The position numbers were made by a program, and so were the translations under genes. From IMG/VR virus record IMGVR_UViG_3300037247_000395, positions 1 to 58,914 of that record: a DNA stretch of 58,914 bases. One strand, written 5' to 3'. Positions 43,747-47,290 of the stretch are shown one piece after another; positions within the stretch are counted from its first letter, which is position 1; each line of letters opens with the position of its first letter. The notes below the pieces were generated by a model that was not told the DNA's origin, did not search any database, and was given only the letters and a program-made list of their open reading frames with translations. The DNA is from a virus (taxonomy: Duplodnaviria; Caudoviricetes).

Positions 43747-44330
43747 CCGCCCCCCAATGCGTAGTCCCCACCCCGCGACAGCGTTGCTCCGGCTGCCACA
43801 CGGCATTCGGCTACATCACCGAGGAGGACCCGGTGACGCAGTGCAAGTTCTGTGAGCGGTGGCTGCACGAGGACTGTCAAGGGCGCTACGTATGCCCCCA
43901 GCATATTCGCGCCGACGCCGCCAAGCTGGTTGCCTGGGAGCTGGCCTGCGCGGACGGGAGGAAGTGATGGTTAGGCCCAGCGCTGAGCGACGAGCACGCC
44001 AAGCAGTCTATGATCGGATATTCGACGAGATGGCGCATGCCTTCTACACCAGTCCGCCGACGAAAGGCGTTGTTGTCTGGCCGACCTTGGCCCAGGCCCT
44101 ACACTTCGGTCTTTGCTGGGGGCTACGGCTGAACGCAGAGCAGGAGAAGAAGCCGGAGGAGAAGTGATGGCTGACCTAACCGCAGAGCAGGAGAAGGCGC
44201 TCATCGAGGCCGTGACGCAACGGCTGAGCGGCTGGGTGGACGCCTGGGAGCGCGGCACCACCGACGAGGAGCGCGAGGAGTACGCCTACTACTTCCTCGC
44301 CGGGGTGCGCTGGGCGCAGAAGGAGAAGCG

Positions 44331-46277
44331 ATGATCCTACAGGGCCACGTCCTGGACAAGCTGGCCGAAATGGAGGCCGAGTCGGTGTCGTGCTGCGCGA
44401 CCTCACCGCCCTACTGGTCGTTGAGGAAGTATGAGGCGGGCGACGTGGTGTGGGGAGGGAGAGCGGGCTGCGAGCATGAGTGGGGCACCGTTGCCAAGGG
44501 TGGCGCGGCTGTCGAGGGATACGCAGGCAAGAAGAAATGGCAGCACACCGTCAACGGGCGCGGCGAGGATCATCCCGAGGCGCGGCACCGGCTAGAAAAC
44601 CCCGACGACTGGACGCGCATCACCCGCGAGACGTCCACCTGTGCCCGTTGCGGCGCGTGGCGTGGCCAGTACGGCCTTGAGCCCACGCCCGAACTGTACG
44701 TCGAGCATACGCTGGACGTGCTGCGGGCCATACGCCGCGTGCTGCGCCCGGATGGCGTGGTGTGGTGGAATATCGGGGACGGGTATGCAGGGGGCAACGG
44801 CACAGGTGGCGGCCCAGGCGACAAACAGTTCACCAACGTCGGAAGTCGGGCTCCAGCGACAGGTCGCGTTGTCGGCCTCAAGCCCAAAGACCTCGTGCTC
44901 ATGCCGTCCCGCGTGGCGCTGGCGGCACAGGCCGACGGCTGGTGGGTGCGCTCGGTGATCGTCTGGTCGAAGCCCAATGCCATGCCGGAGAGCACAAAGG
45001 ACCGGCCCACGACAGCGCACGAGTACGTGCTCCAGTTAGTCAAGGGGCAATGGAGTACGCGAGTCATTCAAGCTGCGAACTTCCCTGACGAGCGCGTTCA
45101 TTTCGGCAAGGACTTCGGGCTTTCGGGTGCGGACTCGTGGTGCGGTCAGTTCTGTATTCGCCTTGCGACCGCGCTCTTTGATTTTGCGCAGCGCCAAGAG
45201 GAGTTCAGCCTGCCGCCGTTTTATGCGGAGGAGTGGCAAGAGTTTTCGGACAACGCCGACGGCGGCGCGGTTGCGTCTGTCCCAGCGGTAAAGCGGGCGG
45301 CGGCGCTCGCCTCTCGGCTGCTCACGGATGATGTTTCCACCAAAGAGTTTCTGTGCCAGATGCACAGCCTGTGGATCGCATTGGGTGACGCTGATGATTT
45401 CCTGAAACGCTGGCGAGCGTCCCTTGCGTTCACGCCATCGGTCTACAGCGATGGAGATACATCCGTCGCTGTCAACGACTCCGGCCAGATACGAAAGTTC
45501 GATCTGCTTCATAACCTAATAGTACATGAACGGCCCACTACTTGCAACTACTGGTACGACCAGGAGGCGGTGAGGGAGGCGCACGGTTCAACGGCATGGG
45601 CTCATCAGCTAGAAGTTTATGAGCGCCGACACGGAGCGGAAAAGCATACGGGCATGAAGCCGCCAGAGGAGGGCATGAAACGCTTCGGCACAACAACGGC
45701 TGAGCGCTACAACAACCCCGCTGGCCGCAACATGCGCTCCGTCTGGGAGTTCCCGACAGCGCAGACGCCGGAGGCACACTTCGCCACCTTCCCAGAGGAG
45801 CTGCCCCGACGCTGCATAGAGGCGTCGTGCCCCCGCGAGATATGCGCCAAGTGCGGAATGGCCAGGGTGAGGCTGGTGGAGAAGACAGACGAGCCCGATA
45901 CACGAGCGAAGGGTAGCCGCTTCGACTCGGGTAAGACAGGCGTGAACGGTGAGGGCCGCACACAGGGCGGTGAACGCTTCCTAGATAGCACTACCGGCTG
46001 GACCTCCTGCAGCTGCACCGAGCCCGACTACCAGCCCGGCATCGTACTGGATCCCTTCGCCGGCATCGGAACAACCGGCATCGTGGCCAAGCGCCTCGGC
46101 CGCCGCTTCGTCGGCATTGAGCTATCGGAGAAATACGCGGAGATGGCGCGGGCCAAGCTGGCCATGTGGTGGCGCCGGACGGAGATGGTTGCTAGCGAGA
46201 CGCAGGACGGGCAATCCGTGCTGCCGCTGGAGACTACGCCGCAGGAAGTCGCTGCCGCCACGCGAGAGGAGGAGTGA
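44331..46277 (+). CDS. N4-cytosine/N6-adenine DNA methyltransferase (beta class) with ~167-aa in-frame insertion
   Basis: Motif IV 'TSPPYW', '[19 protein letters not shown]', 'HFATFP', motif I '[10 protein letters not shown]'. Confidence 0.93.
45036..45512 (-). CDS. Single-motif LAGLIDADG homing endonuclease, antisense inside the MTase gene
   Basis: '[14 protein letters not shown]', 'VTQ', 'LFGG', 'YRW', '[12 protein letters not shown]'. Confidence 0.92.
45519..45547 (-). promoter_or_regulatory. Promoter for a leaderless LAGLIDADG transcript
   Basis: Minus strand TTGCAA-17 nt-TACTAT, ATG 6 nt downstream. Confidence 0.8.
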
Positions 46278-47290
46278 TGCCGATCAGCTACGCGCCCACG
46301 TCCTGGAATCCCGTGGTAGGCTGCACGCCCGTGAGCGAAGGGTGCAAGAACTGCTGGGCCATGAAGCTGCACAATCAGCGGCACGAGGCGAACGTCAAAC
46401 AGGCCAAGTTTTACTCTGGCCTAGCTGAGCCAGCAGGAAAGCGGCGTCTTCGCAGCTACGAGGGCTGGAGGGAATGGGTTACTCGCGTCGGGGCGCCGCC
46501 TGGTGGGTGGGCCGCACGAGCGCGGCAACTTGACGTTCGCCTGCCCATGCCGCCGCAGTACGACCAACCCTTCGAGGAGATCCAGCTCTTCCCCGATCGC
46601 CTCTCCGAGCCCCTACGCTGGCGCAAGCCGCGCACCGTGGCCGTCTGCTTCATGGGCGACCTGTGGCACCCCGAAGTACCGGACGCGTTCATTGACGAGG
46701 TGTTCGCCACCATGGCCCAGGCTGAACGGCATAAGTTCCTCGTGCTGACGAAGAGGGCGGAGCGCATGTATTCCTACCTGAGCAGTCAGACCCGCCGCGT
46801 GGATGTCGCGCTGACGATACAGATCAGAGCTCGCACAGGTGAGAACTCGTTAGTTCCCTGGCCTCTCCCCAACGTGTGGCTGGGCGTGACGGCGGAGAAC
46901 CAGCGCATGGCCGACGAGAGGATACCGCTGCTGCTGAAGACACCGGCCGCGCACCATTGGGTGAGCCTGGAGCCGATGCTGGGGCCGGTGGACCTAGCTC
47001 ACATTCCCCTGTCCGGCGAGACTGGACTTGATACGTTGCGGGGGCTTGGATACCACCATGAGCCGGGGGTGGGCACGAATCGCTGGCCCCACCTCGACTG
47101 GGTAGTGGTGGGCGGTGAGTCCGGGCCCGGGCATAGGCCGATGGACTTACAGTGGGCGGCGGATATCTACGCCCAGTGTCGGGCCGCCAACGTGCCGTGT
47201 TACTTTAAGCAACGCGCAGCATCCCGTCCGGGCCAGCCTTCGGGCGTGGCCGCGCTGGATACCGCCAAGGAGCTGCCATGGACACGATAG
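46277..47290 (+). CDS. DUF5131 (phage Gp37/Gp68) family protein
   Basis: 'WNPVVGCTPVSEGCKNCWA', 'MGDLWH', 'LTKR', 'SLEPMLG', 'WVVVGGESG', 'FKQ'. Confidence 0.92.
   Translation: MPISYAPTSWNPVVGCTPVSEGCKNCWAMKLHNQRHEANVKQAKFYSGLAEPAGKRRLRSYEGWREWVTRVGAPPGGWAARARQLDVRLPMPPQYDQPFEEIQLFPDRLSEPLRWRKPRTVAVCFMGDLWHPEVPDAFIDEVFATMAQAERHKFLVLTKRAERMYSYLSSQTRRVDVALTIQIRARTGENSLVPWPLPNVWLGVTAENQRMADERIPLLLKTPAAHHWVSLEPMLGPVDLAHIPLSGETGLDTLRGLGYHHEPGVGTNRWPHLDWVVVGGESGPGHRPMDLQWAADIYAQCRAANVPCYFKQRAASRPGQPSGVAALDTAKELPWTR

Follow-up and report, generated by a model that had tools for sequence, protein, structure and literature searches.

How can a homing endonuclease gene lie inside a protein-coding gene, without an intron or intein around it, and leave the reading frame of its host open? 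This question is raised by a DNA methyltransferase gene in the virus record IMGVR_UViG_3300037247_000395 (IMG/VR; Duplodnaviria; Caudoviricetes; CheckV completeness ~80%), whose whole length of 58,914 bases is referred to here as the window. The methylase open reading frame (ORF; 44331..46277, + strand, 648 amino acids) belongs to the beta class of N6/N4 DNA methyltransferases (MTases) and contains, on the opposite strand, a gene for an I-CreI-like single-motif LAGLIDADG homing endonuclease (45036..45512, - strand, 158 amino acids and a TAA stop). To our knowledge, homing endonucleases are thought to survive within genes only by means of self-splicing introns or inteins. A preliminary description, made from the sequence alone, proposed a splicing-free homing element that is tolerated because its antisense strand is translated as a loop inside the host enzyme. 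The comparative data reported here support this proposal, and we consider it likely that the insert is a homing endonuclease cassette that does without splicing and is tolerated because host ribosomes translate its mirror frame.

The insert lies between two conserved methylase motifs, '..L.K' and 'YYYD', and its junctions were set by the distance between these motifs in the 120 best methylase homologues. The gap is 3 residues in 80 of the 120 homologues and 168 in the window. It is 168-171 residues in 19 rows, 53-92 residues in nine rows with an unrelated insert in the same loop, and 6 residues in one row; the pattern was not matched in 12 rows. Relative to the empty alleles the net insert is ~165 codons (~495 bp, 45048..45542), with boundaries uncertain by a few bases on each side, and the cassette from the endonuclease stop to the -35 box spans 45036-45547. 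A phmmer search with the 166-residue insert peptide of the window matched 19 of 119 homologues (E 3e-76 to 7e-20), the window's own fragment P0001 being excluded.

The endonuclease and methylase frames are in exact register because methylase codon 236, whose TTA complements the endonuclease stop, opens at base 45036 ((45036-44331)/3 = 235). The three shared bases, 45036..45038, are read as TTA (Leu236) on the plus strand and as TAA on the minus strand, which places the stop codon of the endonuclease gene inside a host motif. The preliminary description had noted a methylase motif split by about 167 codons, a complete antisense LAGLIDADG gene in register with the methylase, its stop in the methylase flank and an unbroken methylase frame, and all of these are confirmed. 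In most of the 39 distinct loci with an embedded endonuclease (see below), the endonuclease stop complements a leucine codon, CTA or TTA, in the host motif directly ahead of the conserved lysine. The corresponding leucine positions in 18 empty-allele DNA stretches are mostly CTG or CTC (TTA/CTA in 3/18 and 2/18), which suggests that the element carries in or imposes its own codon at the flank.

The loop that holds the cassette is variable. Unrelated inserts of 53-92 amino acids occupy it in P0003, P0010, P0016, P0025, P0044, P0070, P0100 and P0110, and the loop therefore tolerates extra sequence. Another homologue, P0049, has a 171-residue insert in the same loop; its LAGLIDADG motif is read in the sense frame, and there is no intein. 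This sense insert is related to the window endonuclease (33% identity over 46 amino acids, E 2e-7), and P0049 is sister on the host tree to P0024, a carrier of the antisense form (support 93). One further homologue, P0021, has a precomputed intein-splicing domain, PF14890, beside PF01555.

The endonuclease looks like a real, intact member of the homodimeric I-CreI-like family. It has one LAGLIDADG-type motif in 158 residues, near the N-terminus, and matches phrog_5046 (E 2.8e-20). Its score against Pfam LAGLIDADG_1 (PF00961) is 15.7 bits (E 0.03), short of the gathering cut-off of 23.1 bits, and a precomputed match to PF00961 is present in two homologues, P0124 and P0132. Used as a query, the 158-residue protein finds 14 homologues. 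The family profile matches the Protein Data Bank (PDB) chains of I-MsoI, I-CvuI and I-CreI (E 1e-15 to 1e-6), with the motif helix and a 'P.L.IK..QA' segment aligned. Seven residues (D14, D16, G17, G58, G59, A84 and K98) are invariant in a 62-sequence alignment of the family. The motif, with its conserved acidic residue, aligns with that of I-CreI-derived and I-MsoI chains, and we take the conserved aspartate to be the counterpart of the catalytic Asp of I-CreI. Among cultured phages there are only four distant matches to the endonuclease (32-36% identity), none of them within a methylase.

Structure prediction agrees with this assignment. The AlphaFold2 (AF2) model of the endonuclease has a pLDDT score (predicted local distance difference test) of 94.9 and a predicted template modelling score (pTM) of 0.87, and shows the alpha-beta-beta-alpha-beta-beta-alpha fold. 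Foldseek places it with I-MsoI, I-CvuI and I-CreI at probability 1.00, with template modelling (TM) scores of 0.65-0.73 at 20-26% sequence identity. A two-copy model scores 0.77, compared with 0.00 for the best of three controls; the mark for this score is reached by 20 of 30 proteins solved as one-chain pairs and by one of 23 solved as single chains. The dimer runs share at least 90% of their contacts, with a partner pLDDT of at least 86, and the predicted interface comprises residues 3-16, 44-52 and 94-97, via the motif helix. Since I-CreI dimers are solved, the dimer score may reflect model memory or likeness.

The host methylase gene also looks alive. The ORF matches PF01555 in three stretches (E 1.1e-40, 140 bits) and the phrog_67 DNA methyltransferase family (E 9.5e-56). 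Its N-terminal part (residues 1-239, 44331..45047) runs from the SPPY catalytic motif to the '..L.K-G' motif, and its C-terminal part (45549..46277) contains YWYD, the GRNxRSVW motif and the S-adenosylmethionine (AdoMet) motif DPFAGIG. SPPY precedes the FxGxG AdoMet motif and the predicted fold is Rossmann-like, as in the beta class. In its AF2 model (mean pLDDT 75) the core is that of a beta-class MTase and resembles CcrM, M.BceJIV, M.MboIIA and M.RsrI (TM by target up to 0.79). In an 84-row alignment (A3), each of the 12 invariant columns maps onto a residue of the window methylase itself. SPPY and DPFxGxG are both kept in 23/39 read-through ORFs from distinct embedded loci, and one or both are missing in 16/39; the latter are attributed to contigs that end inside the gene, the loci not having been checked singly. 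Two paired-cysteine-rich stretches, residues ~48-113 and 508-556, are skipped by the Pfam profile and may be zinc-ribbon-like inserts.

An Rfam scan of both strands of 44000-46600 returned no intron family, the only hit being a chance microRNA match (E 0.49). No intein or Hint family of Pfam matched the methylase protein (E <=0.1) or the insert peptide (E <=10), and the mirror peptide, which is the insert as read in the methylase frame, matched no Pfam family at all at E up to 10. Inteins begin with Cys, Ser or Ala and end with Asn followed by Cys, Ser or Thr; the insert peptide begins with G-Q-W, and a Tyr comes directly after it. There is no room for a Hint domain because the endonuclease gene takes up the opposite strand of 158 of the ~165 insert codons. 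Some 35 bp of the insert are not part of the endonuclease ORF, and no group I or group II ribozyme core was recognised in the insert. The absence of intein termini and of an intron core had been part of the preliminary description and is confirmed by these searches.

If the methylase is read through the insert, the endonuclease must avoid leucine and serine codons that give a stop on the other strand (TTA, CTA and TCA), and relatives of the endonuclease were examined for this. They were fetched with the endonuclease alignment alone (79 viral, 19 genome and the best 80 of 190 metagenome loci), and sampling is therefore independent of the state of the methylase frame. Loci were assigned to classes by a frame scan and by tblastn searches that had the methylase flanks as queries. 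Before codons were counted, L011, L018, L034, L075, L127 and L136 were dropped because their endonuclease gene was cut by a contig end or had no start codon in the stretch searched, leaving 173 loci. The endonuclease lies antisense inside a methylase in 43 of these (class S1, 39 distinct, the window included), antisense at a methylase 5' end in 18 (S2), beside a methylase on the same strand in 16 (U) and in other contexts in 93 (O); three were left unassigned as unclear. The ORFs of L008, L116, L125, L126, L141 and L158 extend past the true stop, and their surplus codons were counted; none of these is forbidden in the embedded class.

In 43/43 embedded loci the antisense frame in register with the endonuclease runs through its gene without a stop, and the other two antisense frames are short. 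Both methylase flanks are in the same read-through ORF in 36/43; in the remaining 7/43 one flank failed strict containment, and where this was inspected the flank match overran the ORF end. Forbidden codons number 0/1128 among the Leu and Ser codons of the embedded copies (772 Leu, 356 Ser; mean G+C at third codon positions, GC3, 0.63), compared with 46/453 in copies beside a methylase (GC3 0.65), 412/2341 in other contexts (GC3 0.52) and 2/455 in copies at the 5' end (GC3 0.71). Embedded copies with a GC3 of only 0.46-0.56 are open as well. The flanks of the embedded loci do use these codons: TTA and CTA make up 10.2% of their Leu codons and TCA 10.1% of their Ser codons. At these frequencies 124 antisense stops would be expected over the 39 distinct copies, and 0 are observed; for the window alone, its own flank usage predicts 5.0 (P(0) ~0.004). 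A free-standing relative with 53% identity to the window endonuclease (L006:1307-1783), which lies outside any ORF and adjoins a terminase large-subunit gene, has an interrupted mirror frame with two forbidden codons. The open methylase frame across the endonuclease is not due to chance. The caution in the preliminary description that such frames are often open by chance in GC-rich DNA does not apply here, and its prediction that insert length modulo 3, register and avoidance of TTA, CTA and TCA would be conserved in other alleles is borne out by the 43 embedded loci.

The two strands are not under the same selection. Pairwise substitutions were analysed in the 39 distinct embedded sequences (duplicates merged from 43), using 149 of the 179 codon columns. 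Averaged over pairs, the differences at positions 1, 2 and 3 of the endonuclease codons are 0.382, 0.263 and 0.563, the most variable being the endonuclease third position, which is the first of the methylase frame. The ratio of nonsynonymous to synonymous differences per site (pN/pS) has a median of 0.47 when the codons are read in the endonuclease frame and of 0.88 when they are read in that of the methylase, and the endonuclease value is the lower in 740 of 741 pairs. L115 and L120, which are the closest pair, give 0.06 and 0.77, respectively. Protein-level selection thus acts on the endonuclease strand; for the mirror peptide the main constraint is freedom from stops, its evolution being otherwise near-neutral. 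In a comparison with the flanks, the insert in the methylase frame has a median pN/pS of 0.86, compared with 0.42 for methylase residues 100-238 among the 39 insert-bearing loci and 0.60-0.71 for two C-terminal methylase stretches, which are more poorly aligned. Both flanks are below 1, as expected for a methylase that is still in use.

Searched against 1.84 billion cluster representatives, the mirror peptide has 81 matches at E <=0.001, of which 70 reach E <=1e-10; almost all of them are in proteins 300-700 amino acids long. Parts of it (45048-45545, + frame) reach an AF2 pLDDT above 80, with helices and strands predicted. This confidence could stem from covariation inherited from the endonuclease on the opposite strand, without a real fold.

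The endonuclease gene appears to carry its own expression signals. A -10-like hexamer, TACTAT (45519..45524, - strand), lies 6 nt upstream of the ATG (45512-45510), and a -35-like hexamer, TTGCAA (45542..45547, - strand), precedes it with a 17-nt spacer and overlaps the methylase codons T-C-N just before YWYD. The position of the -10-like box implies that the putative endonuclease mRNA is leaderless or nearly so. A TANNNT sequence occurs 5-8 nt before the start codon in 30 of the 38 embedded loci with enough upstream sequence, against a background of 0.0045 per position, and is accompanied by TTGNNN at a spacing of 16-18 nt in 20 of the 38. In several of the remaining loci the -10 box is 9-11 nt from the start, and L138 has a Shine-Dalgarno-like sequence instead. 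The claim of a promoter of its own thus stands as far as the hexamers and their conservation are concerned; a consensus scan does not single them out (see below).

These features suggest how the element may work. A ~0.5-kb cassette would be placed antisense and codon-in-register in the variable methylase loop, bringing its own -35/-10 promoter, a leaderless ATG and a 158-residue homodimeric enzyme, and taking its stop from a host Leu codon. The endonuclease would be written with synonymous codons that never give TTA, CTA or TCA, leaving no stop on the reverse strand. By the genetic code, each in-register antisense stop corresponds to a single endonuclease codon that has synonyms, so this transparency costs no amino acid. 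Ribosomes on the methylase message would then read the ~165 mirror codons as an extra loop and complete the enzyme, which may keep its activity. Spread would probably occur by cutting of empty methylase alleles and copying-in of the cassette during repair.

The phylogenetic distribution of the insert is patchy. On a host tree of 120 methylases, built with the insert columns removed, the insert-bearing rows need at least 8 changes, 6 of which are forced by starred branches. The window is the sole carrier in a starred set of 41 rows, and its nearest methylase relative, P0003 (77% identity), is without the endonuclease insert. Approximately unbiased (AU) tests used 60 of the 120 rows, namely all 20 carriers and 40 non-carriers chosen across the tree, and rejected a single clade of carriers (log-likelihood difference 632.5, p 5.6e-58). 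On the insert tree the window is sister to P0002 (support 100, starred), and the host data reject a clade of the window and P0002 (p 7.8e-6). The conflict between the two trees fits homing between diverged methylases. Synonymous differences per site (pS) in the pair L115/L120 are 0.39 for the endonuclease and 0.59 for the flank; as a sign of transfer these distances are suggestive only.

The stretch occurs in one public DNA run, from a marine sediment metagenome that may be the source sample, and in no listed RNA run. Contigs of this DNA run were compared with 44000-46600. One skips 45047-45531 (485 nt, side 29) and a second skips 44994-45547 (side 36). With 85% likeness, and in a metagenome, both are probably derived from related phages and hint only weakly at the presence of empty alleles in the same sample. 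Single contigs of the same run join 44304 to 46276 and 44328 to 46267, omitting the whole methylase gene; at the same likeness, these are weak evidence that related phages in the sample may lack the gene.

Other positions in the same methylase family are also occupied. L004, L121, L131, L137, L138 and L140 have an antisense in-register endonuclease at a second site, after 'YFFD..AVR' and before 'GRNxRSVW', and carry nothing in the K...YYYD loop. Within this one gene family, then, related endonucleases are found at more than one site. More distant relatives are free-standing on the same strand, directly upstream or downstream of methylases of this family (L011-L015, L017, L019, L163-L165, L169-L171, L056 and L047), which suggests a long association of the endonuclease lineage with its methylase target.

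The 18 loci with an antisense endonuclease at the methylase 5' end have enzymes 34-44% identical to that of the window. Examples, on the minus strand of each, are L016:2760-3060, L010:2740-3060, L143:1270-1580, L151:1130-1450 and L007:2740-3060. In the loci inspected, an N-terminal methylase fragment of variable length, in some cases ending at SPPY, reads in frame through the mirror to a stop. This stop is followed by a fresh methylase start and a recoded copy of the first ~30 codons. After SPPY(W) of the recoded copy there is an in-frame TAG in L151, a 4-nt insert with TGA in L016 and L143 and a 7-nt insert with TAA in L010; in L007 the copy continues uninterrupted. These stops and inserts could be a cleavage-site scar, a broken gene or recoding. 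L004, one of the second-site loci, also has an in-frame TAG between SPPY and WGLRDY (L004:4020-4260, minus strand), and its transparent antisense endonuclease lies farther downstream.

Nearly all long ORFs of the window, including the terminase, portal, major head and tape-measure genes, are on the plus strand with the methylase. The next gene downstream (46274..47290, + strand) matches phrog_2045 (E 1.8e-82), a family without an assigned function. The methylase stop TGA (46275-46277) overlaps the start of this gene (GTG 46274 or ATG 46277), and the two could be translationally coupled.

Several points weigh against a splicing-free cassette whose mirror frame is read so that the methylase can be completed. 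The loci are kin, and a product of probabilities over them overstates their independence; even so, synonymous sites of the endonuclease are near saturation (median pS 0.68) despite the shared ancestry. Repeated gain and precise loss would leave the same patchy distribution. The AF2 confidence for the insert in the methylase frame is only middling, with block means of 47-87 and strands predicted at both insert ends. A sigma-70 consensus scan of 44200-46400 found no promoter at the 9/12 threshold, TTGCAA and TACTAT together scoring 8/12, and no terminator. Cassettes at the methylase 5' end keep the mirror open although their product ends before the methylase proper, and the L004 endonuclease is transparent although its methylase has an in-frame TAG after SPPY. 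Stop avoidance in the 5' cassettes may therefore serve ongoing translation or coupling rather than the integrity of the methylase. It is thus conceivable, if unlikely, that the mirror frame is kept open to hold ribosomes on the message (avoiding termination and polarity and preserving downstream coupling) and that the methylase itself is perhaps impaired. The overlap of the methylase stop with the next start fits such a role, as do the L004 locus and the 5' cassettes, in which the product is a short N-terminal fragment plus mirror peptide that stops before a fresh start. An impaired methylase is harder to reconcile with the pN/pS of both flanks, with the retained catalytic and AdoMet motifs and with the unrelated inserts that nine other homologues have in the same loop. 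Maintaining ribosomes on the message and sparing the methylase are not mutually exclusive.

Splicing of an unrecognised kind is also possible at the RNA or protein level, but it is very improbable that such splicing, or ribosomal bypassing, removes the insert and that the frame is open only for that purpose. Antisense LAGLIDADG genes are known in inteins, where the sense frame is open for splicing (described in part in bioRxiv 10.1101/2025.01.02.630785). In the window the missing space for a Hint domain, the lack of Pfam intein and Rfam intron matches and the unfit flanking residues argue against removal, and a mirror peptide that evolves near neutrality (pN/pS 0.86-0.88) is unfit for a catalytic splicing domain. 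Even less probable is a functional domain on the methylase strand with the antisense endonuclease ORF as a by-product. The recurrence of the insert peptide among methylase homologues and library representatives, and the AF2 scores of parts of it, would agree with such a domain; the concentration of variation at endonuclease third positions would not, and the endonuclease family also occurs free-standing with the same motifs and has a confidently predicted I-CreI-like fold, whereas the mirror peptide has no Pfam match. That the frame is open by chance in GC-rich DNA, with a dead or disrupted methylase, can be practically discounted. In-register antisense frames are often long in such DNA, and 14 of the 93 relatives in unrelated contexts are also free of forbidden codons, but every embedded copy is open where many stops are expected, the window alone departs from chance, and the methylase flanks are under purifying selection. 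The splicing-free cassette read through by the host ribosome accounts best for these observations.

Known systems share some features of this element. The closest is the ShiLan domain, or Pacc40 insert, a 'hidden' HNH endonuclease in actinobacteriophage DNA methylases described in the portions consulted of PMC11855218 (Arsenault, Gosselin and Gogarten 2025) and PMC9957025 (Gosselin et al. 2023). Its authors propose a loop that is retained in the protein and leaderless expression of the endonuclease (PMC11855218, in part), and their later preprint places the actinophage N-6/N-4 methylases under PF01555 (bioRxiv 10.1101/2025.01.02.630785, in part). As far as these portions describe it, the ShiLan insert also lies at a conserved site of a phage methylase, leaves the host frame open, has no detectable intein or intron, is patchy in distribution and has its endonuclease in another frame. 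The window insert has the same combination of conserved methylase site, open host frame, lack of a splicing element and patchiness. The two differ in that the ShiLan endonuclease, from the same portions, is of the HNH type and is encoded on the same strand in frame 3, whereas the window has a LAGLIDADG enzyme of the I-CreI-like kind, encoded in register on the opposite strand and with its own putative promoter. PMC11855218 makes no mention of antisense, of a reverse, opposite or complementary strand or of a reverse complement, and its sections 3.1-3.5 and 4 give no codon-avoidance statistics.

Inteins with a LAGLIDADG gene on their antisense strand are described in bioRxiv 10.1101/2025.01.02.630785 (in part), which itself cites Gorbalenya 1998 and Gogarten 2002. 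Going by that part of the preprint, they resemble the window in having an antisense LAGLIDADG gene within a host ORF, an open sense frame and signs of continuing invasion. In the inteins, however, a Hint domain surrounds and removes the endonuclease region, whereas the window insert has no splicing domain, and the hosts named there are DNA polymerase, minor capsid, terminase and thymidylate synthase genes rather than a methylase. A lone in-frame LAGLIDADG domain in cluster-F actinophage methylases, reported as vertically inherited in the part of PMC9957025 covered here, is likewise an endonuclease in a phage methylase without an intein or intron, and the sense insert of P0049 resembles it. According to the same part, that domain is in the sense orientation and is translated as part of the methylase, unlike the antisense endonuclease of the window.

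I-CreI, I-MsoI and I-CvuI are similar to the window endonuclease in size, single motif, fold, aligned acidic and lysine residues and predicted motif-helix dimer, but their genes are sense-strand genes within self-splicing group I introns. Free-standing homing endonucleases of T-even phages home without introns, and in phage Aeh1 the insertion of an endonuclease splits a ribonucleotide reductase gene. These phage elements have their own expression signals and spread into or beside their targets without splicing, and relatives of the window endonuclease adjoin methylases too. They differ in being intergenic or in splitting the host into two ORFs, whereas the host ORF of the window is continuous. 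The literature search, which covered main texts, found no antisense, intein-free endonuclease that is read through by its host gene. The window element combines two known ideas, antisense placement and the lack of a splicing domain.

There may be an even chance that mirror-frame transparency is a general third way, beside introns and inteins, for homing endonucleases to live within genes, reached by one recoded I-CreI-like lineage at three or more methylase sites. These sites would be the K|YYYD loop, the position after YYFD..AVR and the 5' end at SPPY, and the lineage would pass among three states, namely free-standing, embedded antisense and embedded in the sense direction. In endonuclease relatives at a greater distance, ten long ORFs that span the gene in the mirror frame were compared with Pfam; nine matched no family and one had a marginal match to AAR2. 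Generality beyond methylases is therefore not supported by this comparison.

The window and ~40 relatives suggest that splicing is dispensable and that synonymous recoding alone can spare a host frame. The complete lack of forbidden codons in the embedded copies is a clean signature of dual-strand constraint that is searchable genome-wide. Gene-calling programs report such a methylase as a single long protein and overlook the endonuclease. The locus also offers a natural long in-register antisense overlapping gene pair of known origin, and the endonucleases are new I-CreI-like scaffolds with a predictable target. If mirror-frame transparency is indeed a general way of life for this lineage, the mirror peptide read in the host frame would be a continuous source of new protein loops.

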